A DNA stretch of 64,000 nt from Alphaproteobacteria bacterium (GTDB taxonomy: Bacteria; Pseudomonadota; Alphaproteobacteria; UBA828), in NCBI GenBank assembly GCA_963667785.2, contig CAXXMU010000006.1, positions 192,001-256,000 of the forward strand, in the 5' to 3' direction. Shown piece after piece: positions 191-53,702 of the stretch (positions are counted from its first letter, which is position 1; each line of letters begins with the position of its first letter). Below the pieces are notes generated by a model. That model saw only the letters and a list, made by a program, of their open reading frames with translations. It did no database searches and was not told the origin of the DNA. Made by a program: the position numbers and the translations under genes.

Positions 191-351
191 GGGTTCTTCG
201 AACACTGACACGTCTTCCCCCGATTCGCCGCACTCTTGGCGGAAAGGCTGCGTCGCGAGATCGAGTGCCTTGCGCGTCCCAGGGCCCACAGAGGGCTTTC
301 ACGCCCCGAACGTGCTCCTCTCGCGCCGCCGAGGGCGAAGCCGGCGCGTCT

Positions 352-392
352 GTTGACAGTCCTCGAAGCGAGGTCCTACCTTCCGGGTCAAC
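352..392 (+). promoter_or_regulatory. Putative sigma70 promoter of the sugar ABC operon with flanking inverted hexamers
   Basis: TTGACA 353-358, 17 nt spacer, CTACCT 376-381; GTTGAC 352-357 and GTCAAC 387-392 form an inverted pair. Confidence 0.4.
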
Positions 393-462
393 GTCTTTCG
401 CTTTCCCGGCGCGCGGTGCGTCGGCGGACGCAAGACAACCTTCTTCCAGGGAGAGGCAACAG

Positions 463-2130
463 ATGAAAGTTGAGGTCTTCAATCGACTCATGGCTGCCCA
501 GACCACCAGGCGCAGGATGCTGAAGGGCATGGCCGGCGCCGGCGCGATGGCTGCCGTTGCAGGAAGCGGGATCGGTGGCTTCGCCGGCTCGTCCTCGGCA
601 CAGGACAACGTCCGGGCCGAAATTCTCAAGATTCCGGGCGTCGGCGTCGGCTCTCCCATGGATTCCGACTGGCAGAAGGTGGGCGCGCTCTGCCTCGGGC
701 CGGCCAAGGAACATGTCTCCGAGGGCGAGTTTGAGGGTGTCGAGCTCACCTTCCTCGGCCTCAACAACCAGAACCTCCACAACTTCCTCTTCCGCGGCTT
801 CCTCAAGCCGTGGGAGGCCTATACCGGGGCCACGATCAACTGGATCGACCTCGCCCAGGCCGACTACAACGCCCGCCTGCAGCAGTCGATCGCCACCGGA
901 ACGGTCGACTTCGACATCATCGAGATGGGCGCGCCCTTCGAGGGCGACGTCTGCGGCAAGGGCCTCGCCTCGGTCATGCCCGACTGGGTGAAGAGCCAGA
1001 TCGACATGGACGACTACGTCGGCTACCTCAAGGCGCCGGTCGGCACCTGGGAAGGCAAGACCTACCGAATCTCGATCGACGGCGATTGCCACAATTTCAA
1101 CTATCGCACCGACTATTTCGAGGACGAGGATCTTGCGGCTGCCTGGGAGGCGGAAGGCCACGAGGGCCCGTGGGAGGTGCCGACGACCTGGCAGAAGGTC
1201 CAGGAGGTCACCAAGTTCCTCAAGGGCAAGAAGGTGGGCGGCTTCGACGCCTACGGCTACCTCGATCCGCTGAAGGGCTGGGGCGGCTTCGCCTTCTACT
1301 TCCTCGGCTCGCGGGCGACCGCCTATGCCAAGCACCCGGACGATCCGGCGTGGCTGTTCGACGCCGACACCATGAAGCCGCGCGTCAACAACCCGGCCTG
1401 GGTGCGCGCGATCCAGGACGTGCTGGACACGCTCGATTCCCAGCCGCCGGACCAGATCAACGCGGATCCGGGGACCACCGGCTTCCAGCAGTTCCTGGCG
1501 GGCACCGGCTCGATGCTGAGTTGGTGGGGCGACATCGGCTCCAACGCCAAGACCTCCGACACCTCGGTGGTGGGCGACACGGTGGGCTTCTCGATCCTCC
1601 CCGGCTCGGACGACGTGTACAACGCGGCGACCGGCGCATGGGAGACGCTGGCATCCGGCCCGAACTTCTCGCCCAACATGGCCTACATCGGCTGGGGCGT
1701 TTACGTCATGGCCCGCGTGGACGCCGACGCGCAGAAGCAGAAGGCGGCCTGGTCCGCCGCCGCCCATCTCGGCGGCAAGGACCTCTCGCTCTGGTGCGCC
1801 GCCTATCCGTCGGGCTTCCAGCCCTACCGGAACTCCCACTTCAACATTCCCGAGTGGGTGGGCGCGGGCTACGACGAGGCCTTCATCGCCGACTACCTCG
1901 CGTCGGAGGCGGATTCCTACAACCATCCCAACGCGGCGATCGAGCCGCGCATTCCGGGCATCTTCCAGTACTACTCGGTGGCCGAGGACGAGCTGGCGCG
2001 CATCTACGCCGGCGAGTACGGCGCCCAGGAAGGCGCGGACCGGATCGCGGCCGCGTGGGAGAAGATCACCGATCAGATCGGGCGCGAAAGCCAGATCGCG
2101 CTTTATCGGGCGTCGCTGGGTCTCTCATAG
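463..2130 (+). CDS. Sugar/polyol ABC transporter (CUT1) substrate-binding protein, Tat-exported
   Basis: ATG 463 after GGGAGAGG RBS; twin-arginine TTRRRMLK plus hydrophobic stretch ending SSAQ; family-1 SBP features (NYRTDYF, VPTTW); followed by two permeases and an ATPase. Confidence 0.9.
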   Translation: MKVEVFNRLMAAQTTRRRMLKGMAGAGAMAAVAGSGIGGFAGSSSAQDNVRAEILKIPGVGVGSPMDSDWQKVGALCLGPAKEHVSEGEFEGVELTFLGLNNQNLHNFLFRGFLKPWEAYTGATINWIDLAQADYNARLQQSIATGTVDFDIIEMGAPFEGDVCGKGLASVMPDWVKSQIDMDDYVGYLKAPVGTWEGKTYRISIDGDCHNFNYRTDYFEDEDLAAAWEAEGHEGPWEVPTTWQKVQEVTKFLKGKKVGGFDAYGYLDPLKGWGGFAFYFLGSRATAYAKHPDDPAWLFDADTMKPRVNNPAWVRAIQDVLDTLDSQPPDQINADPGTTGFQQFLAGTGSMLSWWGDIGSNAKTSDTSVVGDTVGFSILPGSDDVYNAATGAWETLASGPNFSPNMAYIGWGVYVMARVDADAQKQKAAWSAAAHLGGKDLSLWCAAYPSGFQPYRNSHFNIPEWVGAGYDEAFIADYLASEADSYNHPNAAIEPRIPGIFQYYSVAEDELARIYAGEYGAQEGADRIAAAWEKITDQIGRESQIALYRASLGLS

Positions 2131-7667: not shown

Positions 7668-9839
7668 CTATGCCCTGTTCGGGTAGGTCGGGTGCCCCCA
7701 GATGTGCTTCTCGCTGATGAAGGGAAGCGGATACTGCGGATTGTCCGACTCGAATTCGCGGCCTAGCCGGTGCCCTTCGAACACGGATAACTGGATGAAG
7801 CGCGGCGTGTGGCAGTCCCCCACGTGATAGACCGCCTGCACGTCGTTTTCAGGCCAGTCGTCCTTCCGCGCCTTGAGCGATGTAAACAGCTCGGTTCTCG
7901 ACTGGCGCGCCGTACAGAGGATCACGGTATCGCATTCCAGCATCGTCGTTTCGGTGCCGAGGCGCCTCGGCACGTGGCCTTTTCGCGGCGGCAGCTCGAT
8001 ATCGGCACCGTCGCGATAGGCATACGCGATCTCGACCTTGACCGTGTTGTCGACGGCAAGGGATTCGACCCAGTGAAGCGGGTAGCACTGGATCTCCTTC
8101 TCGTAGAGAAGCCGCTGCAGGTTGGGCCCCTCAAGGGTGTTCTGGCAGAACGGGGCGACCTCGTTGAACTGGGTGACGACGGAGACCTGCTTGCCTCTCT
8201 CCGCCATGATTTCGGCCATCGCGACGCCGGTGAAGTAGCCGTCGCCGTCCAGGATCACCACGCGATCACCGAGTTCCTTTCCGTTCATCACCTGCTCGGG
8301 CGTGCAGAACTGCGGCGCTTCGGCATCGGCGCCCTCGATCGGTCCGAAGTTGACGGCGTTGAGCCCATCCGAGGCCCAACGGGCGCCGACGGCGATCACG
8401 ACCTTGTCAGCTCCGTAGGCAAGCACGCTGTCGGCCGTCATGTCGTCCACGCCGGTGTGCACCTCGACGGTCCTGAGCTTGTCGAGCTGGGTCTGCCGGT
8501 AGCTGATGATGCGGCCCCATTCCGCAAGCCCCGGGTAGCGCATGACCTGGCGGATGTGCCCTCCGATCTCGTCTTCGCGCTCGCGCAGGTGAACGTCGTA
8601 GCCTCGCTCGCCGAGCACGCGCGCGCATTCCATCCCTGCGGGGCCGGCACCCACGACCAGGACCGAACAGGGATTCTCCGCCCTTTCGAACTCTTCGGGA
8701 TGCCAGCCCCGCCGGTACTCCTCCATCGCCGTCGCGTTCTGGGTGCAGATGAGCGGGGCCTCCAGGTTGAACTGTGAGACGCAGATGTTGCAGCCGATGC
8801 ACTCCCGGATGTCGTCTGTCCTGCCTTCCCTGATCTTGCGTGGCAGAAACGGATCGGCGATCGACGGCCGCGCGGCGCCGATCAGGTCCGCCTCGCCGGC
8901 GCGGATGATGCGCACCATGTCGTCCGGGCTGGTGACCCGTCCCACGCCGACTACGGGGACATTCGTCACTTCTTTGACCGCCTTGGTGGCCCAGGTCTGA
9001 TAGGCGGGCTCGAAGAAGCGCGAGGGGCCGGCGTCGTTGCCCCACTCCATGAAGTACGAGATTTTGATGTTCCAGAGATCGCACACGCCTTCACGCGTGA
9101 CCAACTCCACGAACTTGAGGCCCTCCTCCAATTCCAGCCCCGCCGGCCCCAGCAAATTGTCGATCGCGATGCGCGTGCCGACGGCGACGCGATCGCCCAC
9201 GGCGCGCTTGAGAGCCGCCATGGTCTCCAGCCAGAAGCGGGCGCGGTTCTCGAACGAGCCGCCCCAGCGGTCGGTGCGCTTGTTGTACATCGGCTGGAGA
9301 AACTGGGTCGGAAGCGAGGAATCCGAGCCGACGATGTCGATGTAGTCGAAGCCCGCGTCCTCGGACAGTTTGGCGGCATCGACATACATCTGAATGAGCT
9401 CGCGGATGTCGTCTTCGTCGCACTCGTGGCAGTAGTTCTGATAGGCCGTTTCCGACGGCATCTGGCTGGGGCCGCGGGCGATCCCGAGGGTTTCGCGCAC
9501 CGGCGCGTGCGCGCCGCCGTACCAGAGCTGAATACCGGCCAGAGCACCGTGCCGATGCACGCTCTCGGTCGTGTGTCGCAGATTGATGACGTCGCCTTCG
9601 TCCCATAGACGCACGCCGATGTGGGGCGTGTCGTCGGATTCCGGGCTGATTGCGCAGTATTCGACGCAAACGACTCCCCAGCCGCCCTCGGCCTTCATCG
9701 CGCGAAAGGCAGCCTGAGCGCCGGGTCTCTGGGAGCCTGCGCCGTTGCAATGAGGAACCTGGAAGAATCGATTGGGAGCCTGCTTTGGCCCTATTCGAAC
9801 GGGCTCGAACAGGACGTCATACGTCGGATTGCGCGTCAT
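7668..9839 (-). CDS. Trimethylamine/histamine-dehydrogenase-family iron-sulfur flavoprotein
   Basis: NRFFQVPHC (Cys for covalent FMN), AEGGW, ESDD...LWDEGD, EWGNDAGPSRF, CIGCNIC...CTQN 4Fe-4S motif, EEYRRGWHPE, VGAGPAG; ATG 9839. Confidence 0.9.
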   Translation of the reverse strand: MTRNPTYDVLFEPVRIGPKQAPNRFFQVPHCNGAGSQRPGAQAAFRAMKAEGGWGVVCVEYCAISPESDDTPHIGVRLWDEGDVINLRHTTESVHRHGALAGIQLWYGGAHAPVRETLGIARGPSQMPSETAYQNYCHECDEDDIRELIQMYVDAAKLSEDAGFDYIDIVGSDSSLPTQFLQPMYNKRTDRWGGSFENRARFWLETMAALKRAVGDRVAVGTRIAIDNLLGPAGLELEEGLKFVELVTREGVCDLWNIKISYFMEWGNDAGPSRFFEPAYQTWATKAVKEVTNVPVVGVGRVTSPDDMVRIIRAGEADLIGAARPSIADPFLPRKIREGRTDDIRECIGCNICVSQFNLEAPLICTQNATAMEEYRRGWHPEEFERAENPCSVLVVGAGPAGMECARVLGERGYDVHLREREDEIGGHIRQVMRYPGLAEWGRIISYRQTQLDKLRTVEVHTGVDDMTADSVLAYGADKVVIAVGARWASDGLNAVNFGPIEGADAEAPQFCTPEQVMNGKELGDRVVILDGDGYFTGVAMAEIMAERGKQVSVVTQFNEVAPFCQNTLEGPNLQRLLYEKEIQCYPLHWVESLAVDNTVKVEIAYAYRDGADIELPPRKGHVPRRLGTETTMLECDTVILCTARQSRTELFTSLKARKDDWPENDVQAVYHVGDCHTPRFIQLSVFEGHRLGREFESDNPQYPLPFISEKHIWGHPTYPNRA

Positions 9840-10018
9840 CGCCTTGCCCTCGCATGTATCGCCTGCATCCCACGGCATCCAAGCATGACGCGGCCCGCAT
9901 TCGGATGCAAAATGCCGACCGGGAGAAAGCGCCGGTACAGCCTCGACCATCCGGCGATCCCCCGGGGCCGGCAGTCGTACGACGCGACCGCGCCGATCCC
10001 TGGGAAGGAGCTTGAACG

Positions 10019-11341
10019 ATGGCCCGCTCCAACGACGATCTGAGCCAGCGCGACACCGCGGCGATTGCGGAGATTCAGAAGCTCCGCTTCAACCCGCTGG
10101 CGGCCCGCGGCGGCAGCGGCTCCTACCTCACCAGCGAGGACGGCCGGCGCATCCTCGATCTCTCGGCGTCCGCGACCGCCGCGAGCCTCGGCTACGCCCA
10201 CCCGGCAGTGACCGAAGCGGTGACCAGGGCGCTCACCGACATGGCGGGTGCGAGCCTCTTGATGTACCCGAACGAGTCGGCCGCCGCGCTCGCCGAAGCG
10301 TTGCTCCAGGTCACGCCGGGTAGTGGCGAGCGGCGCGTCTGGTTCGGCCATTCCGGCTCGGACGCGAACGATGCCGCGGCCCGCGTGCTGGAGGCGGCCA
10401 CCGGCCGCCCCCGCTTCATCTCGTTCATCGGCTCCTATCACGGCGGGGTCGCAGGCTCGATGGCGATCTCGGGCCATACCGCGATGACCCACACCCTGCC
10501 GCGACCGGGCCTGGTGCTGCTGCCCTATCCCGACCCGTACCGGCCGCGCTTCTCGGCGGACGACGTGCTCGACATGCTGGACTACCAGTTCGAAACCACG
10601 TGTCCGCCGGAACAGGTCGCCGCCGTCTTCATCGAGCCCATCATGTCCGACGGCGGGCTCATCGTGCCGCCCGCAGGCTTCCTGAAGGCGCTGGAGGAGC
10701 GCTGCCGGCGACACGGCATTCTCACGGTGCTCGACGAGGTCAAGGTCGGCTGCGGGCGCAGCGGGCTGTTCCACGCCTTCAGTCACGAGGGCCTGGAGCC
10801 CGACATGGTGGTGCTCGGCAAGGGGCTGGGCGGCGGCCTGCCGCTCTCCGCCGTGATCGGGCCCGCGGACGTTCTGGACCACCGCCCCGCCTTCGCCATC
10901 CAGACCACCGGAGGCAATCCGGTCTGCACCGCCGCGGGCCTCGCCGTGCTGCGCACCATTCTCGACGAGGACCTTCCCGATCACGCCGCGCGCATGGGCA
11001 AGCAACTGGCGGACGGCCTGCGGGCGCTGGGCGAACGACACGCGATGATCGGCGATGTGCGCGGCCGCGGGCTCGCGATCGGTGTCGACCTGGTGCGGGA
11101 CCGCGAGAGCAAGGCGCCGGTCGACGCCACCACCACGGCCAAGGTGATCCTGCGCGCCTACGAGCTTGGCGCGAGCTTCATCTATGTCGGGCTTGCCGCC
11201 AACGTGCTGGAAATCACGCCACCCCTGAACTTGAGCGACGCAGAACGCGGCGAGGGGCTTGCCATCATTGACCGGGCCCTCACCGATGTCGCCGAGGGCC
11301 GCGTCTCCGACGAGGCGGTGCAGGCCTACATGAACTGGTGA
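10019..11341 (+). CDS. Class III PLP enzyme, alpha-amino-epsilon-caprolactam/amino-acid-amide racemase-like
   Basis: QKLRF, WFGHSGSDAN, LPYPDPYRP, IEPIMSDGG, DEVKVG (Lys instead of the usual Gln), LGKGLGGGLPLSAV, terminal Trp; all as recalled for Achromobacter obae ACL racemase. Confidence 0.8.
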   Translation: MARSNDDLSQRDTAAIAEIQKLRFNPLAARGGSGSYLTSEDGRRILDLSASATAASLGYAHPAVTEAVTRALTDMAGASLLMYPNESAAALAEALLQVTPGSGERRVWFGHSGSDANDAAARVLEAATGRPRFISFIGSYHGGVAGSMAISGHTAMTHTLPRPGLVLLPYPDPYRPRFSADDVLDMLDYQFETTCPPEQVAAVFIEPIMSDGGLIVPPAGFLKALEERCRRHGILTVLDEVKVGCGRSGLFHAFSHEGLEPDMVVLGKGLGGGLPLSAVIGPADVLDHRPAFAIQTTGGNPVCTAAGLAVLRTILDEDLPDHAARMGKQLADGLRALGERHAMIGDVRGRGLAIGVDLVRDRESKAPVDATTTAKVILRAYELGASFIYVGLAANVLEITPPLNLSDAERGEGLAIIDRALTDVAEGRVSDEAVQAYMNW

Positions 11342-11498
11342 GCGACCGCCCCGCGCGGCGCGCATTGACGGGACTGAGGACGTGACATTGGTGAGACGTC
11401 CGGGCTACCGTCGGATTCGATGCTTCGAGCATCATTTCCCCAACGAACAAGAAAATATCGTCGGTACAACTGACGTGAACAAGAAAGGGAGGTCAACG

Positions 11499-12893
11499 AT
11501 GTCGATAATCAACAAGCTTGCCCTCGGAGCCGGCGCCGCTGCGCTGGCCGCCGTTCTGGCCGGGGCGCCCCTGGATGCCAACGAGGCGCACGCCTGGTCG
11601 CTGGAGGAGGCGGCCAAGCCCTATGCCGGAACGGAAGTCCGCGGCATCTGCGACGGTTACGCGCCGTGCATGTCCTATGTCGCGCTGACCGACGAATTCG
11701 AGCAGCTCACCGGCATCAAGGTGAACTTCGAGATCGCCGACCTCGCGGCGATTCAGACCCAGTTCCTGACGGACCAGATCACCGCATCGCAGTATTACGA
11801 TATGGTCGAGGTGGTATCGTTCTCCACGGGCGTGTTTCCGGCCCATGGTTTCGTGCACGACTGGTCCACGTTTACCGACAATCCGGCGCTGAAGGATCCG
11901 GACGTCAATTTCGCGACTGACCTCGTCCCGGCGCTCTACGAAGTTTCGACTCTTCACGACGGCAATCTCTACAGCGTGCCAACAAAGTACGTGCTGGCCT
12001 TCATGGTCTACCGCAGCGACCTCGTAACCGACGAGGAGAAGGCCAACTTCGAAGCGGCGAACGGCTACGCCATGCCGCTACCGCCGACCACCTGGCAGCA
12101 CTATCACGACCTCGCCGCCTTCTACACGCGCGAGAAGGGCGAGACGCTGGCGGGGCAGGTGCTGGAGAGCGACTTCTACGGCACGATCGTGCCCTTCAAG
12201 CGCCACCTCGCCGTGCTCTACGACTACGAGCGCATCCTGATCAACATGGGCGGCCGCTATCTGGACGAGAACGGCAACGTCGCGCTCGACGAAGGCGATG
12301 CCGCGGTCAAGGCGCTCGAGTTCATGCTCTCGCTCCGGCCCTACTCGAACCCCGGCTACATGGAAGCGACCTGGGACGAAGAGTACTCGGAGATGTGCGC
12401 CGGCAATCTGTTCACCATGTTCACCTGGGGCGATACCACGCCCTACCTCGAGATTCCGGAAGACTGCCCCGGTTCGGCCGGAAAGATGACCTACTATGCG
12501 CATCCCGGCATGGGGCTCTCCATCGCCGAGGCCAACAACTGGATGATTCCGAAGAGCGCCCAGAACCCGGAAGCCGCGTTCCTCTTCGCCCAGTGGATCA
12601 ACCGCAAGGACATCCAGGCCCGGACCATGCCGGCGGGCGGCAATCCGACCCGGAGCGACGTCTACGCAATGCCCGAGTGGAGCGACCCGAACTGGGTGAA
12701 CATCCAGCGCGACCAGCTCTATCGGTGGCTTGAGGAGAACGACAAGCTGCTGCCCCGTCCGAATCCGCCGACGTGGCTCGCCTGGACGGAGATCTTCACG
12801 GAAGAGCTCTCCAACGCCGGCGCCGGGAACCAGGATGCGGCGACGACAATCGCCAACATCGCGCAGCGGATGCGCGACGTGGCGGAGCAATAA
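11499..12893 (+). CDS. CUT1-type ABC transporter substrate-binding protein
   Basis: ATG 11499 after GGGAGG; Sec signal ending AHA-W; SLEEAAKPYAG, YRSDL, PTTW, EAAFLFAQW. Confidence 0.88.
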   Translation: MSIINKLALGAGAAALAAVLAGAPLDANEAHAWSLEEAAKPYAGTEVRGICDGYAPCMSYVALTDEFEQLTGIKVNFEIADLAAIQTQFLTDQITASQYYDMVEVVSFSTGVFPAHGFVHDWSTFTDNPALKDPDVNFATDLVPALYEVSTLHDGNLYSVPTKYVLAFMVYRSDLVTDEEKANFEAANGYAMPLPPTTWQHYHDLAAFYTREKGETLAGQVLESDFYGTIVPFKRHLAVLYDYERILINMGGRYLDENGNVALDEGDAAVKALEFMLSLRPYSNPGYMEATWDEEYSEMCAGNLFTMFTWGDTTPYLEIPEDCPGSAGKMTYYAHPGMGLSIAEANNWMIPKSAQNPEAAFLFAQWINRKDIQARTMPAGGNPTRSDVYAMPEWSDPNWVNIQRDQLYRWLEENDKLLPRPNPPTWLAWTEIFTEELSNAGAGNQDAATTIANIAQRMRDVAEQ

Positions 12894-12908
12894 GGGCGGG
12901 GGTGTCGC

Positions 12909-13020
12909 AGCCCAGGGAAACCTGCTTCGGGGGGCCGAACCGGCCCTCGGGACCCCGACCTGGGCTCGCAGGATAGGCTGAGTGCCGTCCCCGGTGTTGC
13001 GCCCGGCAACGCCGGGGACC
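12909..13020 (+). other. Stem-loops downstream of the SBP gene (likely mRNA stabiliser or partial terminator)
   Basis: AGCCCAGG...CCTGGGCT and GTCCCCGGTGTTGC...GCAACGCCGGGGAC inverted repeats. Confidence 0.5.
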
Positions 13021-13101
13021 GGCTGCGTTGACGGCGGCGCAGCGTCGCTGTGAGCGTGGGCTCGGGTCAAGCCGTCCCTGAACTCCGAGAAGGGCCTTGT
13101 C

Positions 13102-14622
13102 ATGGCAGACGTCCATTACGACGCGATCATCGTCGGCGCGGGTCATAACGGGCTGGTCGCCGCCTTCTACCTCGCGCGCGCCGGACGGAAGGTGCTGCTC
13201 TGCGAGCGCCGGTCGTTCGTGGGCGGTGCCTGCGCCACCGAAGAGCTGTTCGATGGCTATCGGGTGTCGTCCTGTGCCTACGTGATGTGGAAGCTGGAGC
13301 AAAAGGTGCGCGACGACATGGGGTTGGACAGGCGCGGCCTGACCATGCATCTGATCGACCCGCCGGTGTTCTTTCCCTACGAAGACGGTTCGCACGCGTT
13401 CCTGCACTACGACATGGATCGCACGGTGGAATCGATCGCGCGGCTGAACCGCCATGATGCCGCGCGATTTTCCGACTGGGTGGACCTCTGGACCCGGGCA
13501 ACGGGGCTGGTGCAGCCCTACATGCTGACCGATCCGCCGACACTCTCCGACGTCTGGGAACGCGCCAAGGCAAGCGGGGACGAAGCCGTGCTGGAGCGCT
13601 TTCTCACCAGCTCGCTCGTCGATCTCGCGGCCGACCACTTCGAGGACGAGCGCGTGCGCGCGATGATGCTCTACGTGCAGGATATCGCCGATCCCCATGC
13701 GCCGGGCAGCGCCTGGGCCGAGGTCTTTTTCCAGTTCGGCGCCGCGGGCGGACACGGCTACTACGTCGTCGAAGGGGGCATGGGCTCGATCACGCAATAC
13801 ATGGCCGATGCCGTGACCGAGCAGGGCGGCGAAATCCGTTGCGACGCGCCGGTCGCGCAGGTCTTGGTGGAGAACGGCGTGGCCAGCGGTGTGCGCCTCG
13901 AATCGGGCGAGGAGATCAGCGCAGGCATCGTGGTGTCGAACGCCGATCCCAAGCGCACCTATCGCACCCTCTTTTCCGCCGATGACCTGCCCGGCGACCT
14001 CGCCAGGCGCGTGGAACGGCTCAAGACCGGAACAGGCTACTTCAAGTTCCACTGCGTGATGGACGACGTTCCGGATGTCTCGGGCTACCTCGATGGGTAC
14101 GACGGCCCGCCCATCTCCTACATCATGATCGCGCCCAGCCTCGACCACTACGCGCGGGCGGGGGCTGAGATGCGCGCAGGCGTGCCCTGCAGCGAGCCGA
14201 TCTGCCACCTTCAGGTGCCGACGCTCTACGACGGGACCCTGACCGATCGCGACGGCCATATCTGCTCGATCTGGGGGCTCTATGCGCCGGCGCACCTGGC
14301 GGAGGGCACGTGGGATGAGCGCCGCGAGGAGGTGGGCGAAGGCGTCATCGATTACGTGACGCGGTTCGTCCCCAACTTCCGCTCCGCGATTCGCGAATGG
14401 ATGTTCATGAGCCCGTGGGACATCGAGCAGCGCGCCGGCATCACCGACGGCGCGATCCGCCATCTCGACGTGGTGCCGAGCCAGTTCCTGAACGGGCGGC
14501 AAAGCTACGACACGCCGATCGGGAACTTCTATCTCTGCGGCGGCGGTACCCATCCGGCCGGTGAGGTCACCGGCGCGCCGGGCCACAATGCCGCGCATCA
14601 CATCTTGCGGACCAACGCCTAG
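13102..14622 (+). CDS. Phytoene-dehydrogenase-like (PYROXD2/COG1233) FAD oxidoreductase
   Basis: IVGAGHNGLVAA, ERR..VGGAC.TEE, GGMGSIT, VSNADP, YLCGGGTHPAGEVTGAPGHNAA. Confidence 0.88.
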   Translation: MADVHYDAIIVGAGHNGLVAAFYLARAGRKVLLCERRSFVGGACATEELFDGYRVSSCAYVMWKLEQKVRDDMGLDRRGLTMHLIDPPVFFPYEDGSHAFLHYDMDRTVESIARLNRHDAARFSDWVDLWTRATGLVQPYMLTDPPTLSDVWERAKASGDEAVLERFLTSSLVDLAADHFEDERVRAMMLYVQDIADPHAPGSAWAEVFFQFGAAGGHGYYVVEGGMGSITQYMADAVTEQGGEIRCDAPVAQVLVENGVASGVRLESGEEISAGIVVSNADPKRTYRTLFSADDLPGDLARRVERLKTGTGYFKFHCVMDDVPDVSGYLDGYDGPPISYIMIAPSLDHYARAGAEMRAGVPCSEPICHLQVPTLYDGTLTDRDGHICSIWGLYAPAHLAEGTWDERREEVGEGVIDYVTRFVPNFRSAIREWMFMSPWDIEQRAGITDGAIRHLDVVPSQFLNGRQSYDTPIGNFYLCGGGTHPAGEVTGAPGHNAAHHILRTNA

Positions 14623-14650
14623 GGCCCCGGCCTGTCCCGAGGCGCCTCGC

Positions 14651-14746
14651 ATGAATGCATCGTTCCCGGATCAGGCGAGAGTGGTGATCGTCGGCGCGCC
14701 GTCGAAGGCGATGGAGGCGCGGCGCGGCGACGCGGGCTCGCCATGA
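14651..14746 (+). pseudogene. Remnant N-terminus of a dimethylglycine/sarcosine-dehydrogenase (GcvT-family) gene
   Basis: MNASFPDQARVVIVGA resembles the P..ARVVIIGGG start of this family but breaks within the GxG motif; 31 codons, ending in ATGA overlap with the permease. Confidence 0.55.
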
Positions 14747-15672
14747 GCAACGGTGCGTCGAGCGGAGGCGTCCTGGCCGATTCCGCGTCGACCAGAACCT
14801 TCCTCTGGGTCTGCATGGGCCCGGTTCTGGTGTTCCTGCTCATCGTGGCGATCGCGCCCATGACGCTCGCGATCGTGGACAGCCTCCGCGAGCTCTCGCT
14901 CACCAGCCTGACGAAGCGGGGCCAGTTCATCGGGCTCGACAACTACCGCGATCTGATCGCAACCGATTCGAAGTTCTACGCGGCGATCGCGCACACGGCG
15001 ATCTTCATGGCCGTCGTGGTGCCGGTGGAGTTCGTGCTCGGCCTGATGATCGCGCTGTGGCTCAATCGCGAGTTCGCCGGCCGCCGGCTGGTGCTGACGA
15101 TCATCATGATCCCCACCATGATCGCACCGGTGGTGGTGGGCATGATCTGGCGTTTCTTCCTGATGCCGAGCTTCGGTGTGCTCACCGTCTACCTCAACCG
15201 GATCGGGCTGTTCGAGGACACGAGTGTCTTCTCGGGCCCGGTGACCGCGTTCGGCGCCCTGATGATCATCGACATCTGGGAGTGGACCCCCTTCATCATG
15301 CTGATCATGCTGGCGGGGCTTTCGGCGGTCCCGAGAGCGCCGATTGAGGCGGCGACCCTGGACGGGGCGTCGCGCTGGCAGATTCTGCGCCACATCGAGC
15401 TCCCGATGCTGGTGCCGCTGATCATCATCGCGCTCATGCTGCGCGCAATCGACGCGAGCAAGATCTTCGACACGATCCATGTGCTGACCGGCGGCGGGCC
15501 GGGAAACGCAACGGAAGTCATCGCCACCTTCGCCTATCGCACCAATTTCCTGACGTGGAACCTGGGCTACGGTGCGGCGGTCTGTCTGGTGCTCGCGTTC
15601 GCGTCGCTCGTGATGGCGGCGCTCTTCTACAAGATCGTGAGCGGCAAGGCGCCGACTCAGGAGGCGGCCTAG
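14743..15672 (+). CDS. CUT1 ABC permease (MalF-like)
   Basis: GLDNY, DIWEWTPF, EAATLDGASRW, TGGGPG. Confidence 0.93.
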   Translation: MSNGASSGGVLADSASTRTFLWVCMGPVLVFLLIVAIAPMTLAIVDSLRELSLTSLTKRGQFIGLDNYRDLIATDSKFYAAIAHTAIFMAVVVPVEFVLGLMIALWLNREFAGRRLVLTIIMIPTMIAPVVVGMIWRFFLMPSFGVLTVYLNRIGLFEDTSVFSGPVTAFGALMIIDIWEWTPFIMLIMLAGLSAVPRAPIEAATLDGASRWQILRHIELPMLVPLIIIALMLRAIDASKIFDTIHVLTGGGPGNATEVIATFAYRTNFLTWNLGYGAAVCLVLAFASLVMAALFYKIVSGKAPTQEAA

Positions 15673-16488
15673 ATGCTGCGCCGCAACTGGGTCACCTTCC
15701 TCGTTCCTCTGGTCCTCTTGCTGGGCGTCGCGCTGATTCCCTATATCTGGATTCTGCTCGCGAGCTTCAAGGAACGGGTGGACTTGATTACGCCCGATCC
15801 GAAGTGGGTATTCGAGCCCACGGTCGTCAATTATGTCGAAATCTTCGGAAGGGGCTTCGACGTGTTTCTCCTGAACTCGATCATTATCGGGTTCTCGAGC
15901 ACCGCGTTGACCGTGATTGTCGGCACCATGGCGGCCTACGGCTTCTCCCGCTTCAAGATCCCGGCGGGGAATCACCTGTTCTTCCTGATCCTGGCGACGC
16001 GGCTCGGGCCGCCGGTCGCCTACGCCTTGCCGATGTACCTGGTTTTCGACGCCTTCGGCCTCGTCAACAGCCATTTCGCGGTCATACTCGCCCACGCGAC
16101 CTTCAATCTCGTCCTCGTGGTCTGGATGATGCGGTCGTTCTTCAACGACGTCCCGCGCGAGATCGAGGAGGCCGCTTACCTGGATGGTTGTGGGCATTTT
16201 CGGGTGTTCTGGCGCTTCGCGATCCCGATGACGTACCCCGGCCTCGTGGCGGTCATGATCTTCGTGTTCATCTTTTCGTGGAACGAGTTGCTGTTCGCCC
16301 TGATTCTCTCAGGCGGGGAGACACGAACGCTCCCGGTGATGATACCGTCCCTCGTGCTGCACACAGGCACGCTCTGGGGGCAGGTCGCCGCAGCCTCGAT
16401 CATTCAGAGCATCCCCGTGCTCATCTTCATCTTCTTCATTCAGAAGAAGCTGGTGCAGGGCCTGACCTTCGGCGCGGTCAAGGGCTGA
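15673..16488 (+). CDS. CUT1 ABC permease (MalG-like)
   Basis: EEAAYLDG, SWNELLFA, GLTFGAVKG. Confidence 0.93.
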   Translation: MLRRNWVTFLVPLVLLLGVALIPYIWILLASFKERVDLITPDPKWVFEPTVVNYVEIFGRGFDVFLLNSIIIGFSSTALTVIVGTMAAYGFSRFKIPAGNHLFFLILATRLGPPVAYALPMYLVFDAFGLVNSHFAVILAHATFNLVLVVWMMRSFFNDVPREIEEAAYLDGCGHFRVFWRFAIPMTYPGLVAVMIFVFIFSWNELLFALILSGGETRTLPVMIPSLVLHTGTLWGQVAAASIIQSIPVLIFIFFIQKKLVQGLTFGAVKG

Positions 16489-16522
16489 GGCACGCGCGCC
16501 TCCCGCGGCGGTCGGGAGAGCC

Positions 16523-17602
16523 TCAGGCGCGCAGGCGCTCGCCCGTTTCGGTGTCGAACGCGAGCACCTTCACGGGATCGGTGAAGAGCCTGACGGTATC
16601 GCCGTAGCGGATCGCATCGTTGCGGATCGTCTTGGCGGTAAGGGCCGGCCCCTCGGACGAGAGCTCGAGGATCGTCTCGGCACCCAGATGCTCGACGGCC
16701 TCGACCCGACAGTCCAGCCCGACCGCGTCGCCATCGGATCCGGGAGCGAGGAATTCCGGGCGGATACCGAGCGTGACGGCTCGCCCCTGCGCCGCAGCGT
16801 GGGTCGGCGGCAGCCCGAGTGCGAGTTCGCCGGCGCGAAAGACCGGCGCGCCGTCGGAGGGCTCCACCACGCCGTCGATCAGGTTCATGGTCGGGCTGCC
16901 GATGAAGCCCGCGACGAACATGTTGTCCGGGTTGTCGTAGACGGCGAGCGGCGTGCCGATTTGCTGGATGCGTCCTTCGTTCATGACGACGATGCGATCG
17001 CCCATGGTCATCGCCTCGGTCTGATCGTGGGTGACGTAGATCATCGTCGCGGAGAGCCTGTGATGAAGCTTGATCAACTCGCCGCGCATCGCCATGCGCA
17101 GCTTGGCGTCCAGATTGGACAGCGGCTCGTCGAACAGGAAGACCGCCGGATCCCTCACGATCGCCCGCCCCAGAGCGACCCGCTGCTGCTGCCCGCCCGA
17201 CAGGGTCTTGGGCTTGCGCGACAACTCCTCGGTGATGCCGAGGATCGTCGCCGCGTCCCGAACGCGCCGGTCGATCTCGTCGCGCGGCACCTTCTTCAGT
17301 TTCAGGGCGAAGCCCATGTTGTCGGCGACCGACATGTGCGGGTAGAGGGCGTAGGACTGGAACACCATCGCGACATCGCGGTCCTTGGCGTGGACGCTGG
17401 CGACGTCGCGATCGCCGATGTAGATGCTTCCCGAGGTGACCGCCTCCAATCCAGCGATCATGCGCAGGCATGTCGTCTTGCCGGAGCCCGAGGGACCGAC
17501 CAGGACCACGAACTCGCCGCTTCCGATGCTGAGATCGACGGCGTCGACGGCGGCCACGGCGCCGAAGCGCTTGGTGAGGCCTTCGAGCCGCACCGCGCTC
17601 AT
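16523..17602 (-). CDS. CUT1 ABC ATP-binding protein
   Basis: GPSGSGKT, VFQSYALYPH, LSGGQQQR, DEPLSNLD; ATG 17602 overlaps upstream TGA (TGATG). Confidence 0.95.
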   Translation of the reverse strand: MSAVRLEGLTKRFGAVAAVDAVDLSIGSGEFVVLVGPSGSGKTTCLRMIAGLEAVTSGSIYIGDRDVASVHAKDRDVAMVFQSYALYPHMSVADNMGFALKLKKVPRDEIDRRVRDAATILGITEELSRKPKTLSGGQQQRVALGRAIVRDPAVFLFDEPLSNLDAKLRMAMRGELIKLHHRLSATMIYVTHDQTEAMTMGDRIVVMNEGRIQQIGTPLAVYDNPDNMFVAGFIGSPTMNLIDGVVEPSDGAPVFRAGELALGLPPTHAAAQGRAVTLGIRPEFLAPGSDGDAVGLDCRVEAVEHLGAETILELSSEGPALTAKTIRNDAIRYGDTVRLFTDPVKVLAFDTETGERLRA

Positions 17603-17760
17603 CACAGGGCTCCCAGGTAGATCATCTCGGCGGCCACGAAGAGTGCCACACCCCAGAAGCGGACCTCGCCGGGCGTGAGCCATCGCTTGCGTGTGTTCCA
17701 GATTCCCAGAAGAAACTGAAACGGCGCGCAGACGGCAAAAACGATGATGTGCTCCAGCAC
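17602..17760 (-). CDS. Small membrane protein, 52 aa, about 2 TM segments
   Basis: GTG start; VLEHIIVFAVCAPFQFLLGIW...FWGVALFVAAEMIYLGAL; stop overlaps the ATPase start. Confidence 0.55.
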   Translation of the reverse strand: MLEHIIVFAVCAPFQFLLGIWNTRKRWLTPGEVRFWGVALFVAAEMIYLGAL

Positions 17761-17768
17761 GGCCGGGC

Positions 17769-17966
17769 CTACGGAGTGTTCTTGTTCGCCCGGAGGACAA
17801 ACAGGAACGGCACGCTCGCGATCAGCGGGAAGGCGAACAGGCCGATCGGCACGACGATGAAAGGCGAAATGTCGGCCTCGATCATCGCGCCGCAGCCGAC
17901 GACGACCATGAAAGAATAGAGAACTGCCCAAAGTGAGGCGCGAAGGTTGGGGCGATCGAGAGGCAT
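17769..17966 (-). CDS. Small membrane protein, 65 aa, about 2 TM segments
   Basis: GAGGTG RBS, ATG 17966; LWAVLYSFMVVVGCG and FIVVPIGLFAFPLIASVPFLFVL hydrophobic segments. Confidence 0.6.
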   Translation of the reverse strand: MPLDRPNLRASLWAVLYSFMVVVGCGAMIEADISPFIVVPIGLFAFPLIASVPFLFVLRANKNTP

Positions 17967-18277
17967 GTTGCGAGCACCTCGCCCGGTGCGGCTCGGCGTG
18001 CCGGCGGGCGCTTGTTCGGCCGCGCCGACCATAGCATCGGACCCTTGTACGGTATACCGCCACGGCTCGGACGCCCCACGGAACACCTCGCCGCCGCATC
18101 GTGCGTTGCTACGCTGCCCCCCACCGGCCTCCCTGTGCCCGACGGACAGAGACCTGAGCTCATTTCCGCCAGGGCGCGCCAGTTGTCCGTGGAGTCCGGC
18201 AAGAGGATGAACACGGTCGAGGCCGTGCATCAGGCGCCCGCCGGCGGCGCGCGCGACGCGCAGGACACGGAGTCCAG

Positions 18278-18395
18278 GCGGGATTCGGCGGGACGGGCGG
18301 GATTATCCCAGGTCTCCATCCCAAGACCCCCCGAGGCGGGATTCGCCGGGATAGCAAGGGATTCCGTTGGGATATCGGGGCGGGTTTCCGGGATG
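18278..18395. repeat. Helically phased GGGAT direct-repeat array (putative protein-binding site)
   Basis: GGGAT at 18280, 18299, 18338, 18348, 18358, 18369, 18390; GGGAC at 18290; inverted ATCCC at 18305 and 18318. Confidence 0.65.
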
Positions 18396-27325: not shown

Positions 27326-27541
27326 GGCCGTCGCTCCCAGAACAGAGGCGCAGCGGCGCGCGGCCGCTGCCTCTCACGGTCATAGCACCTCGGGAGGGCG
27401 ATGGCGATGCGCCGCGCGCGCCGAAACGACTGGACGGCGCGCGGAAATGCTGGCTTGCTTCGCTCCGGCCTGCCTCGCGCCCCTCGCGGGGCGGGAGCCC
27501 GGCCAAGGCGGCTCTCACGTTGGACGAGAAGGACGGAACCC

Positions 27542-28873
27542 GTGGCCCTCAGCGACGCACGCGGCGTGCAGACATCGGCGACCGAGCCCGGCAGCCTGGC
27601 TCTCCTCGAGACGGCGATGCGCCAGTTCCAGTGCTATCGCGGCGATGCCGTCGAGACCATCGACCGGGCGCTGGCGGAAGACCCGGACTTCGTGACCGGG
27701 CACATCTTCCGCACCGCGATGCACGCCATGCTCTGGGAGAGGAGCGTGCTGCCGGAGGTCGAGGCGGGCCTCGGCCGGCTCCGCGCGCTGGAGAGCACCG
27801 CCACCGAGCGTGAGCGGGCCCATGTCGCGGCGCTCGCGGACTGGGCCGCCGGCGACTGGGACGGCATGCGGGCACGGCTGGACCGGATTCTCGCCGACGA
27901 GCCGCGCGACGCCCTGGCGCTGCAGGCCGGCCACCTCGGCGACTTCTTCCTCGGCGACCGCGACAATCTGCGCGGCCGTATCGCCCGCGCGCTGCCGGCC
28001 TGGAGCCGGGACGACCCCGGCTACGGCTTCGTGCTCGGCATGGCGGCCTTCGGGCTGGAGGAGTGCGGCGACTACGGCGCCGCGGAGGACGCCGGCCGGC
28101 AGGCGCTCGCGCTGGAGCCGGACGACTGCTGGGCCCAGCACGCGCTCTGCCACGTGATGGAGATGCAGGCCCGGCAGGAGGAAGGCATCGCCTTCATGGA
28201 AGGCCGCCGGGATCACTGGGCGCAGGAGGACAACGGCTTCGCCTTCCACAACTGGTGGCACGTCGCCCTCTTCAACCTCGACAACGACCGCTACGACCGC
28301 GTGCTGGAGATCCACGACACGGCGCTCCGGCCCGAGCCCTCGAAGATCCAGCTCGAGATGCTCGACGCCGCGGCGCTGCTCTGGCGCCTCCGCTTGCGCG
28401 GGATCGACACGGGCGACCGCTTCGAGCGCCTGGCCGCGACCTACGAGGCGTCGCCGGCGGAGCACGGCTTCTACGCCTTCAACGACATGCACGCGATGAT
28501 GGCCTACGTGGCGACCGGACGGGATCGCGCCGCCGCCCTGCTCGAGAAGGCGGCGCTGGCTGCGGCGGAGGGGGCGGGCACCAACGCCCGCATGACCCGC
28601 GAGGTGGGGCTCCCCATCCTGCGCGCGCTCCGTGCCTTCGGCGCCGGGCGCCACGGCGAGGCGGTGGACCTGCTGATGCCGGTGCGCTACCGGGCGCATG
28701 CCTTCGGCGGCAGCCACGCCCAGCGCGACATCGTCCACCGCACGCTGATCGAGGCTGCGATGCGCGACGGCCAGCGCGGCCTCTCGCAGGCGCTGGCGAA
28801 CGAGCGCATCGCGCTGAAGCCGGACTGCCCCTTCAGCCGCTCGCTCGGGGAACGCGCCGGAGCGCCGGCCTGA
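27542..28873 (+). CDS. TTC38-like tetratricopeptide repeat protein
   Basis: GTG 27542 after AGGA; GMAAFGLEE, DCWAQHA..HV.EM, HNWWH.AL, FNDMHA, GGSHAQRD. Confidence 0.88.
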   Translation: MALSDARGVQTSATEPGSLALLETAMRQFQCYRGDAVETIDRALAEDPDFVTGHIFRTAMHAMLWERSVLPEVEAGLGRLRALESTATERERAHVAALADWAAGDWDGMRARLDRILADEPRDALALQAGHLGDFFLGDRDNLRGRIARALPAWSRDDPGYGFVLGMAAFGLEECGDYGAAEDAGRQALALEPDDCWAQHALCHVMEMQARQEEGIAFMEGRRDHWAQEDNGFAFHNWWHVALFNLDNDRYDRVLEIHDTALRPEPSKIQLEMLDAAALLWRLRLRGIDTGDRFERLAATYEASPAEHGFYAFNDMHAMMAYVATGRDRAAALLEKAALAAAEGAGTNARMTREVGLPILRALRAFGAGRHGEAVDLLMPVRYRAHAFGGSHAQRDIVHRTLIEAAMRDGQRGLSQALANERIALKPDCPFSRSLGERAGAPA

Positions 28874-38686: not shown

Positions 38687-39844
38687 ATGCTGCACCAGAA
38701 CGGCCCTCGCGATCGCGAGGTCGCCCGCTACACCGACCACTACTTCACGCGCACGCGCACGGCGATCGCCCGCTTCGGCGATTCGCGCGTCACCTACGCG
38801 CTGTTCCTGAGGCGGCCGGTCTGCTTCGCGCCGCGCCTGATGATCGATTGGCTGGAGGCGGTCGCGGCCGAGCGCGACACCCGCTTCACCATCGAGTGCC
38901 AGTTCGAGGAGGGCGCATGGGTCGGCGCCGGCGAGCCGCTGATCTACCTCTCCGGCTCCTTCCGCCACCTGGTCGATCTCGAGACCCTCTACCTGCAACG
39001 GCTGGGCGCCGCCTGCGTCGCCGCCTACAACGCCTACGCCATGGCCCGCGCGCTCCCCAAGGTGGGCTTCCTGGCGATGGACGCGCGGCACTGCGCCGGC
39101 ATCGAGATGGCCGAGATGATGGCCTATGCGGCGAGCGTCGGCTCCCGCGCGGCGCAGAAGGAGGCCGGCGCCGTCGGCTTCATCGGCAACGCGACGGACG
39201 CGACCGCCCACTATTTCGGCAACCAGCGGGGCTACGGCACGATGCCGCATGCCTTCATCGGCTATGCCGGCTCCACGGTCCGCGCCGCGGAGATGTATCA
39301 CGAGATCTTCGACGGCGAGCCGATGACCGTGCTGGTCGACTACTACGGGCAGGAGATCACCGATTCGCTCGCCGTCTGCGAACGCTTCCCCGACCTCGCC
39401 CGGCAGGGCGATCTCAGCATCCGCCTCGATACCCACGGCAGCCGCTACGTCGAGGGCCTGGACATGGCCGAGTCCTATTCGGTGCTGGAGCGCTACAGCC
39501 CGAACGCGGTGCGCGAATACCGCACCGAGGCGGAGCTGCGCTGGCTCAACGGCACCGGGGTCAGCGCGGCGGCGCTCTTCCACCTGCGCGCAGCGCTCGA
39601 CCAGGCGGGCTTTCCCAAGGTGAAGATCGTCGCGAGCTCTGGCTTCGGCCCGGCCAAGTGCCGGGTCATGGCCAGCGTGAACGCGCCGATCGACGTGATC
39701 GGCACCGGCTCCTTCCTGCCCGAGAACTGGTCCGAGACCTTCGCCACGGCCGATATCGTCGACTATGGCGGCACGGCGCGGGTCAAGCTCGGCCGCGAGT
39801 TTCTGCTACGCAACGGCAGCGGCACATCGGAGCCCACACGCTAG
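38687..39844 (+). CDS. pncB: Nicotinate phosphoribosyltransferase family protein
   Basis: TDHYF, GTMPHA, LVDY, IRLDT, ASSGF, GTGS; adjacent to nadE. Confidence 0.78.
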   Translation: MLHQNGPRDREVARYTDHYFTRTRTAIARFGDSRVTYALFLRRPVCFAPRLMIDWLEAVAAERDTRFTIECQFEEGAWVGAGEPLIYLSGSFRHLVDLETLYLQRLGAACVAAYNAYAMARALPKVGFLAMDARHCAGIEMAEMMAYAASVGSRAAQKEAGAVGFIGNATDATAHYFGNQRGYGTMPHAFIGYAGSTVRAAEMYHEIFDGEPMTVLVDYYGQEITDSLAVCERFPDLARQGDLSIRLDTHGSRYVEGLDMAESYSVLERYSPNAVREYRTEAELRWLNGTGVSAAALFHLRAALDQAGFPKVKIVASSGFGPAKCRVMASVNAPIDVIGTGSFLPENWSETFATADIVDYGGTARVKLGREFLLRNGSGTSEPTR

Positions 39845-53401: not shown

Positions 53402-53702
53402 TCTCTCCGGCCTGCCGGCCGATGCGGCGGATATCCGCCGTCGCCTGCGTCCTCTCCCGCGCCCGCCCGATCTATTGACTCGCTTTTCCGTCCCGCCCAT
53501 CGTTTTTGTTATGCCTCTCCCGAGTCGCGACGACGTCGGGACGCTTGAGGAGGTCTGGCCCCACAGCGGCATGGGGTAGCGGGATGATCGTCGAGCACCC
53601 GGCGCCGAGCGCCTCCCCCCGCTTCGCCCGAACCGCCCGCGACCGCCTCCCGGCGGCGCTCCCGATCGGGTGCCGCCCCGCTCTGCCAAGGAACGCAATG
53701 CC

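Follow-up and report, generated by a model that had tools for sequence, protein, structure and literature searches.

A Predicted Amino Acid Amide Racemase with an Alanine-for-Tryptophan Pocket Loop in an Alphaproteobacterial Importer and Flavoprotein Gene Island

Homology and Fold of the Window Racemase

Analysis of a 64,000-nucleotide stretch of alphaproteobacterial DNA (contig CAXXMU010000006.1, positions 192,001–256,000; hereafter the window) revealed a gene at 10019–11341 (+ strand) that very probably encodes a pyridoxal phosphate (PLP)-dependent racemase of fold-type I. To judge from its sequence, the protein belongs to the α-amino-ε-caprolactam (ACL)/amino acid amide racemase family (EC 5.1.1.15 type), and within it to the subtype that carries alanine in place of Trp49. 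The open reading frame (ORF) runs from ATG to TGA and encodes 440 amino acids with a class III aminotransferase fold; a ribosome-binding-like site (GGAAGGAG, 10003–10010, + strand) is located 8 nucleotides before the ATG. The + frame is the coding frame of 10019–11341, as given by its codon-position guanine-plus-cytosine (GC) content of 0.71/0.50/0.90 and by its Pfam match, which consists of Aminotran_3 (PF00202) alone (E = 3.9e-83). A 509-amino acid ORF on the opposite strand (9836–11365) is likewise open; the GC content of the region around the racemase is 65–70%, and open opposite-strand ORFs are common at such values.

The initial annotation of this gene, made from the sequence, had read it as a PLP racemase or epimerase on the basis of four internal motifs and a C-terminal Trp, and all of these were located in the 440-residue ORF when the coordinates were checked. 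SASATAA comprises residues 49–55 (10163–10183), where Ala52 is aligned with Trp49 of ACL racemase and Thr53 replaces the usual Gly. IEPIMSDGG spans residues 205–213 (10631–10657) and includes Asp211 (codon 10649–10651), the counterpart of ACL racemase Asp210, at a position held by Glu in transaminases. DEVKVG (residues 239–244, 10733–10750) supplies Asp239, equivalent to Asp238, and Lys242 (codon 10742–10744), equivalent to Lys241 and replaced by Gln in transaminases, and GKGLGGGLP (residues 267–275, 10817–10843) contains Lys268 (codon 10820–10822), the counterpart of Lys267. Trp440 (11336–11338) stands immediately before the stop codon and corresponds to ACL racemase Trp436. Two further positions of interest are Tyr140 (10436–10438), aligned with ACL racemase Tyr137, and Glu398 (11210–11212), where representatives of both the transaminase type and the amino acid racemase type have Arg.

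A HMMER search of all PDB chains gave as its top match 6GIO, entitled "Amino acid amide racemase," from Ochrobactrum anthropi (E = 5.1e-193), with residues 8–440 of the query aligned to residues 7–439 of the chain without a gap and 289 of the 433 positions identical by hand count (67%). Because the motifs described above lie within this gapless alignment to a solved racemase, they are not a chance co-occurrence. The next match was the ACL racemase of Rhizobium freirei (5M46 series, E = 4.5e-144), with that of Achromobacter obae (2ZUK, 3DXV, and 3DXW) at E = 4.5e-139, Ala/Ser racemase, broad-specificity racemase, and isoleucine 2-epimerase at E = 1e-81 to 1e-75, and γ-aminobutyric acid (GABA) transaminases at E = 1e-64. 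An AlphaFold2 model of the racemase was built from a 13-sequence alignment (mean predicted local distance difference test score 87.1, predicted template modeling score 0.88). Foldseek ranked 6GIO first for this model, with a template modeling (TM) score of 0.95–0.97, a root mean square deviation of 1.7 Å, and 66% identity, followed by the ACL racemases (TM 0.91–0.94, 52–55% identity), the free amino acid racemases (TM 0.83–0.91, 32–36% identity), and the GABA transaminases (TM 0.85–0.87, 30–33% identity). Alignment and modeling against the ACL racemase structures, which the initial annotation had called for, therefore gave the same ranking from sequence and from Foldseek, with 6GIO in first and the ACL racemases in second place.

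These matches also bear on the reading of the gene as a true class III transaminase of the GABA, acetylornithine, or omega-amine type. Such a reading could point to Aminotran_3 as the sole Pfam family, to the fold held in common with GABA transaminase, and to the transaminase models that dominate the list of NCBIfam matches, the best of them being the generic "aspartate aminotransferase family protein." However, that model scores 348 bits against a cut-off of 608, all the transaminase models are far under their cut-offs (GABAtrnsam, TIGR00700, 256 against 506 bits), and the identity to GABA transaminases is half or less of the 66–67% found with the solved racemase.

Catalytic Residues and a Discriminating Signature

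HMMER alignments to 6GIO, 5M46, and 2ZUK, together with our own alignments, place Tyr140, Asp211, Asp239, Lys242, Lys268, and Trp440 of the window racemase on Tyr137, Asp210, Asp238, Lys241, Lys267, and Trp436 of the A. obae and R. freirei ACL racemases, and the same six catalytic and cofactor positions are equal in 6GIO. The equivalence of the Asp and Lys positions, on which the initial annotation had made its reading depend, holds for Asp211, Lys242, and Lys268 and extends to Trp440. In ACL racemase, according to an excerpt of PMC6424897, Asp238 hydrogen-bonds the pyridine nitrogen of PLP and Tyr137 packs edge-to-face on the PLP ring in 5M46. The PDB titles of the R. freirei D210A (5M4B) and K241A (5M4D) mutants describe a trapped geminal diamine and D-ACL external aldimine, and both residues therefore matter for turnover. 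The Lys267 position, Lys268 in the window racemase, is taken by us to be the residue that forms the Schiff base with PLP.

The contrast between SDGG, DEVK, and a terminal Trp on the one hand and the EGG and DEVQ of transaminases on the other was examined in the query and the 117 full-length proteins (400–500 amino acids) found among the 150 best representatives in a search of 1.84 billion cluster representatives. When these 118 representatives were sorted by their residues at positions 211 and 242, 41 were of a Glu/Gln type, with Arg398 in every case, a terminal Trp in none (0/41), and Ile at position 52 in 33. The Asp/Lys type comprised 29 representatives, with Glu398 in 23, a terminal Trp in 24, and position 52 occupied by Trp in 19 and by Ala in 3. 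A third, Asp/Gln type (n = 11) combined Arg398 in all 11 with a terminal Trp in 7 and Ala at position 52 in 9, and the remaining 37 of the 118 were spread over 27 other residue pairs. The anticipated contrast was thus borne out, the 41 Glu/Gln representatives all having Arg398 without a terminal Trp.

The Glu/Gln/Arg398 set of the transaminase type is absent from the window protein, which has Asp211, Lys242, and Glu398. Escherichia coli GabT (1SF2; mutants 1SZK E211S, 1SZS I50Q, and 1SZU V241A) shares the fold (TM 0.85–0.87) and the PLP-lysine position but is 32% identical, and the transaminase-type Ile/Glu/Gln/Arg stand against Ala52/Asp211/Lys242/Glu398 of the window racemase. We take the transaminase-type residues to be Ile50, Glu211, and Arg398 of GabT, a correspondence drawn from the PDB mutant names and from background on the enzyme; these three residues presumably set GabT substrate recognition. 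A transaminase is, on this evidence, hardly tenable as an identity for the window protein.

The Asp/Gln type is pertinent to a second alternative, an enzyme that racemizes or epimerizes free amino acids and resembles isoleucine 2-epimerase of Lactobacillus buchneri or the archaeal Ala/Ser and broad-specificity racemases. Among solved structures these enzymes rank next after the ACL racemases (E = 1e-81 to 1e-75), and they have in common with the window racemase the fold, the PLP racemization chemistry, Asp211, often a terminal Trp (7/11), and, in 9 of 11 representatives, Ala52. They differ in being 32–36% identical, in having free amino acids as substrates according to their PDB titles, and in carrying Gln242 and Arg398 (11/11), where the window protein has Lys242 and Glu398. 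The corresponding NCBIfam models are also under their cut-offs, with LeuMetRace (NF045634) at 272.9 against 800 bits and the alanine/serine racemase family (NF004171) at 272.7 against 639 bits. Such a specificity is accordingly judged very unlikely.

Conservation within the family was assessed on relatives gathered by scanning one genome per species; out of 520 that were confirmed, the 80 best were used. A gene finder based on third-position GC content (GC3) recovered the racemase in 73 of the 80, and these, with the window copy and a paralog from the same genome, make up the 75 family sequences; loci L010, L018, L022, L024, L027, L053, and L055 stand outside the neighbor and residue counts, L010 being examined by tblastn instead. 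Asp at position 211, Lys at 242, and Lys at 268 are each found in 75/75, and the six-residue catalytic set is intact in 71/75, the exceptions being two truncated C termini and two sequences that carry Thr140, in one case together with Ile440. Glu398 is present in 73/75. Glu398 instead of Arg can thus be added as a putative fourth family marker, one derived in this analysis rather than from the literature. Arginine at position 398 is presumed by us to bind the substrate carboxylate in GABA transaminase; a Glu at the position of the transaminase and free amino acid racemase Arg is consistent with an enzyme that favors neutral amides and lactams, in which the carboxyl group is masked, over free amino acids. 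As an annotation rule, Asp211, Lys242, Glu398, and the terminal Trp cleanly split these racemases from transaminases of the same Pfam family, in a family without an NCBIfam model that reaches its cut-off.

The Pocket Loop

The initial annotation had placed SASATAA at the pocket position of Trp49, and Ala52 is indeed aligned with Trp49 of the A. obae enzyme, as well as with Ala51 of 6GIO (loop SGSAGPAA) and with the Ile found in 33 of the 41 transaminase-type representatives. The A. obae and R. freirei ACL racemases have Trp49, whereas the window protein has Ala52, a residue type that it shares with 6GIO. Position 52 is occupied in the 75 family sequences by Ala (36), Trp (33), Cys (3), Phe (2), or a gap (1), so that an equivalent of Trp49 is absent from the window racemase as from 6GIO and 41 of the 75. 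Within this alignment Trp49 is the mark of a subtype, not of the whole family.

In the A. obae enzyme the pocket is closed by Trp49; Ala52 would open it, and bulkier or different substrates may be accepted. The earlier suggestion of a roomier or different pocket therefore stands in so far as the Trp-to-Ala replacement is real, but it does not amount to a new type of pocket, since 6GIO, which is solved and characterized, and 36 of the 75 relatives also have Ala. The loop of the window racemase departs from that of 6GIO in having Thr53 for Gly, Ala50 for Gly, and Ala54 for Pro. Position 53 is Gly in 66 of the 75 sequences, Thr in 8, and a gap in 1, and the exact SASATAA loop occurs in 8/75; only Thr53 is, by this comparison, particular to the subclade of the window racemase. 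As an open-pocket variant (Ala52, Thr53) that is 66–67% identical to the O. anthropi enzyme, the protein would be useful for biocatalysis.

Phylogenetic Placement and Weight of the Assignment

A quick IQ-TREE phylogeny (LG+G4) was calculated from 83 rows, 73 family sequences and 10 outgroup representatives, with two family rows shorter than 400 amino acids left out. The family forms a single 73-row clade with a Shimodaira–Hasegawa-like approximate likelihood ratio test (SH-aLRT) support of 100 and a stem length of 1.0. The long outgroup branches are flagged in the tree, and the ingroup result is independent of them. The window racemase lies in nested clades of 4 (SH-aLRT 98), 8 (99), and 39 rows (100), the last of which has 33 Ala, 3 Cys, 2 Phe, and 1 Trp at position 52 and includes Mesorhizobium genes with the 6GIO-type loop. 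The 6GIO sequence is not itself a row of the tree, and its placement is inferred from identity and from the SGSAGPA motif that it has in common with the Mesorhizobium genes. The second racemase copy of the same genome falls in a separate, four-row clade of the Trp type. The position of the window protein inside the racemase clade argues against a transaminase, and the free amino acid racemases lie outside the 73-row family clade. Taken together, the 6GIO match, the TM score of 0.95, the residue set, and the fully supported racemase clade support the original reading of a PLP racemase or epimerase.

Several points weigh against the assignment to the ACL/amino acid amide racemase family, or against carrying it further to a substrate. 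The support for it is homology to enzymes that are 52–67% identical. Of the 69 NCBIfam models that match the racemase at E ≤ 1e-10, none of the best 25 attains its cut-off, which leaves the protein with no curated name. The pairing of Asp210 with Lys267 as acid and base in ACL racemase is assumed here, as it was in the initial annotation, and so are the exact roles of Asp210, Lys241, and Lys267. The window protein has Thr53 in the pocket loop where 66 of the 75 relatives keep Gly, and the best-80 set is rich in Mesorhizobium, such that its counts are not independent samples. Finally, no hydrolase is found among the neighbors of the window racemase, unlike 60 of the 75 loci, and in this hydrolase-free context the window copy may have taken on another role or another substrate.

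The kind of enzyme is already known: a marine family member from Citreicella sp. SE45 has been characterized, going by a title cited among the references of PMC6061476. The new gene adds a member of the open-pocket subtype and is unsurprising to a specialist.

Racemase Copies and Their Names

The genome that contains the window (4.09 Mb in 14 contigs, 98% complete, 6.6% contamination) encodes a second family member, at G000:C2:322441-323751 (locus L009, 9436–10755, +), which is 62% identical to the window racemase, together with 18 further, more distant class III paralogs. This second copy is of the Trp49 type, its loop SASWGAA sharing the SxxWGAA pattern of the A. obae and R. freirei ACL racemases, and its presence in the same genome allows a direct comparison with the open-pocket variant. 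It is located directly after an amidase-signature gene (PF01425; L009, 7965–9386), with an amidohydrolase (PF01979) and a luciferase-like monooxygenase close by. In this amidase gene and the Trp-type paralog, the industrial combination of an amidase with a racemase has a natural counterpart.

A family member at E ≤ 1e-120 was detected in 15 of 18 further genomes from this genus. Copies at least 93% identical to the window racemase occur in 5 genomes and copies at 83–86% in 9, two of which also have the type at 93% or above; those at about 61% are of the Trp type. The 83–86% copy is absent from the window genome. Mislabeling of the gene by automated pipelines had been predicted, and for the most part this is what the databases contain: a relative at 95% identity is named "aspartate aminotransferase family protein" (NCBI) and one at 88% "4-aminobutyrate aminotransferase" (JGI), names that could also be cited in favor of a transaminase. 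The prediction fails for a relative at 86% identity, in a record filed under a sponge name, which is called "2-aminohexano-6-lactam racemase."

Gene Neighborhood of the Window Copy

The racemase gene stands in an island of transport and flavoprotein genes. Divergent from it lies a gene for a 760-residue OYE/flavin mononucleotide and pyridine-nucleotide-disulfide oxidoreductase protein of the 2,4-dienoyl-CoA reductase/TMADH fold (7668–9950, − strand), whose highest-scoring NCBIfam model, "mycofactocin system FadH/OYE family oxidoreductase 2," gives 396 bits where 793 are required; this gene is conserved context, not a part of the racemase. Downstream, a periplasmic solute-binding protein (SBP_bac_8/SBP_bac_1) with a signal-peptide-like N terminus is encoded at 11499–12893 (+), its probable start being the ATG at 11499, not the listed GTG at 11382. 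Family searches then place a flavin adenine dinucleotide flavoprotein of the amine oxidase/CrtI/PYROXD2-like group at 13102–14622 (+) and two UgpAE/MalFG-like ATP-binding cassette (ABC) permeases at 14743–15672 and 15673–16488 (both +). The convergent ABC ATPase (16523–17800, −) is UgpC/MalK-like (UgpC subfamily, 453.7 bits against a cut-off of 432), and since its profile match begins at residue 67, translation probably starts further downstream than the TTG that was listed. A scan of 9700–18300 returned no promoter-like site and one terminator-like site, below the shuffle expectation, and is uninformative on operon structure.

The best solved-structure matches are phytoene dehydrogenase 4DGK (E = 1e-17) for the flavoprotein and a sugar ABC binding protein (E = 1e-7) for the binding protein, and neither of these searches suggested a substrate. 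In the protein atlas the flavoprotein matched only clusters named [quoted passage not shown] and "phytoene desaturase family." Of 300 further genomes from the class, a single one has it at E ≤ 1e-90, with 36% identity, and the flavoprotein is thus too rare for a co-occurrence statistic.

Racemase Neighborhoods across Relatives

In the orthologous loci of the same genus (identity of at least 93%), the OYE-fold gene adjoins the racemase in 5/5 (87–91% identity), and the binding protein (88–95% identity) and flavoprotein follow it in 4/5, L091 being without both. Permeases of the window type are found in 0/5. Their place after the flavoprotein is taken in L090, L092, L093, and L094 by dimethylglycine/sarcosine-dehydrogenase-like genes (DAO and GCV_T), of which there are two each in L090, L092, L093, and L010 (13634–16078 and 17078–19318 in the last, which is apparently the same contig as L092) and one in L094.

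The 83–86% copies, fetched for 8 of the 9 genomes (L095–L102), have a different setting, with a LamB/YcsF-family gene directly upstream in 8/8 and a luciferase-like monooxygenase directly downstream in 7/8; the LamB/YcsF family comprises lactam hydrolases like 5-oxoprolinase subunit A. In a sister family, four of the five genomes with matches were fetched (L103–L106), and all four loci have Ala-type and Trp-type racemases in tandem (for example at 9430 and 8094 of L103), preceded by a PLP enzyme of Cys/Met metabolism, with an isochorismatase-like hydrolase in 3/4. Homologues of the window ATPase are present in 4/4 of these loci (65–67% identity) and homologues of the window permeases stand beside the racemases in 3/4 (65–78% identity). 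The flavoprotein is near the racemases in one of them, L106, and directly after the racemase in L014, at 68% identity in both.

For the family as a whole, neighbors were counted within four genes of the racemase in the 75 loci, a set dominated by related Mesorhizobium genomes. Glutamine-synthetase-like genes were the most frequent (37 loci), followed by RpiR regulators (25), N-formylglutamate-amidohydrolase-like (22) and isochorismatase-like genes (21), and DAO flavoproteins (15). Amidase-signature, S15 peptidase, and M1 peptidase genes occurred in 3 loci each, and LamB/YcsF and S58 (DmpA-type) peptidase genes in 2 each; ABC transporter genes of the branched-chain type were also frequent. At least one amide or peptide hydrolase or glutamine-synthetase-like neighbor is present in 60/75 loci, and these counts are in line with a family that processes amino amides or peptide-like compounds. 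Such recurrent and varied neighbors (amidases, glutamine-synthetase-like enzymes, importers, and flavoproteins) are leads to natural substrates.

Loci L037–L065 (Mesorhizobium and others) show a block in the order RpiR, isochorismatase-like, glutamine-synthetase-like, N-formylglutamate-amidohydrolase-like, and racemase, frequently accompanied by a DAO flavoprotein and an ABC importer of the branched-chain type; the block resembles a route of amine catabolism by glutamate tagging. For 6GIO, the gene context compared is that of Mesorhizobium genes carrying its type of motif, which follow RpiR, isochorismatase-like, glutamine-synthetase-like, and N-formylglutamate-amidohydrolase-like genes, unlike the window racemase.

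Proposed Mechanism and Function

By reference to the family, Lys268 would hold PLP as the internal aldimine, with Asp239 hydrogen-bonded to the pyridine nitrogen and Tyr140 packed against the ring. The α-amino group of a carboxyl-masked substrate (a lactam, amide, ester, or thiolactone) would then form the external aldimine. Lys268 would flank this intermediate on one face and the Asp211/Lys242 pair on the opposite face, so that the α-proton is abstracted on one of them and added back on the other. Most likely the enzyme interconverts the D- and L-forms of an imported α-amino compound and thereby makes both available to a stereospecific enzyme downstream. In the window this partner is probably the neighboring flavoprotein, and in most relatives amidases would fill its place. 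The idea that the enantiomers of an imported compound are equilibrated for the flavoprotein of the window island is speculative.

The reported substrates of the family are compatible with this range. Amino acid amides are substrates of ACL racemases, and α-amino acid esters are also accepted by the O. anthropi enzyme, according to an excerpt of PMC7431475; the A. obae enzyme exchanges the α-proton of homocysteine thiolactone, as stated in part of PMC11391342. Because of this reported activity on homocysteine thiolactone, amino-lactones and amino-thiolactones are worth considering as substrates. No statement of a natural role for the racemase family was found in the literature searched; an excerpt of PMC6061476 describes the conversion of DL-aminocaprolactam to L-lysine by a racemase together with an L-lysine-lactam hydrolase.

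An alternative that retains the family and its chemistry is that this copy has been recruited to a non-amide substrate, such as an imported amino-lactone, thiolactone, amino-sugar-like, or N-methylated amino compound, and feeds the PYROXD2/CrtI-like flavoprotein rather than an amidase. Consistent with this are the OYE-fold gene, racemase, binding protein, and flavoprotein that stay together in 4/5 orthologous loci, the flavoproteins directly after racemases in L014 and L106, the related permeases in three of the four sister-family loci, the lack of a hydrolase neighbor in the window, and the thiolactones and esters taken by the family. However, the evidence for recruitment consists of gene adjacency, neither the binding protein nor the flavoprotein has a characterized close relative among the solved structures and protein atlas, the flavoprotein is rare in the class, and operon content is not fixed, four orthologous loci having dimethylglycine-dehydrogenase-like genes instead of permeases. 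Recruitment is thus considered unlikely, albeit with an appreciable chance of being correct.

A more specific form of the proposal is that the Ala52/Thr53 subclade, in one alphaproteobacterial order known mostly from metagenome-assembled genomes, has been uncoupled from amidases and wired to a sugar-type ABC importer and to PYROXD2/CrtI-like and TMADH/OYE-fold flavoproteins. We regard this as a tentative and rather doubtful suggestion. If it were true, the island would be a catabolic route for a natural chiral α-amino compound (an amino-lactam, an amino-lactone or thiolactone, or an N-methylated amino compound), in which the racemase lets a stereospecific flavin oxidase consume both enantiomers, and the island would give the family a natural role. 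For the gene itself, an ACL/amino acid amide racemase of the Ala-for-Trp49 subtype remains the preferred assignment.

Other Features of the Window

The first 24 kb of the window (1–24000), which contain transporter and catabolic genes and the racemase island, have a GC content of 0.64–0.70, and the values are mostly 0.70–0.755 over 26000–64000, where housekeeping genes are found (alaS, recA, cysS, purL/purQ/purS/purC, and DAHP synthase). Four sizeable ORFs with good coding signal, at 27401–28873 (+), 38687–39844 (+), 53670–55211 (+), and 60802–61770 (−), have no Pfam match at E ≤ 1e-5. A 621-residue ORF at 265–2130 (+) has a strong coding signal (GC3 0.87), likewise with no Pfam match, and directly downstream of it are genes for two ABC permeases, an ATPase, a xylose-isomerase-like TIM-barrel protein, and a PfkB kinase; the ORF possibly encodes an unusual solute-binding protein.

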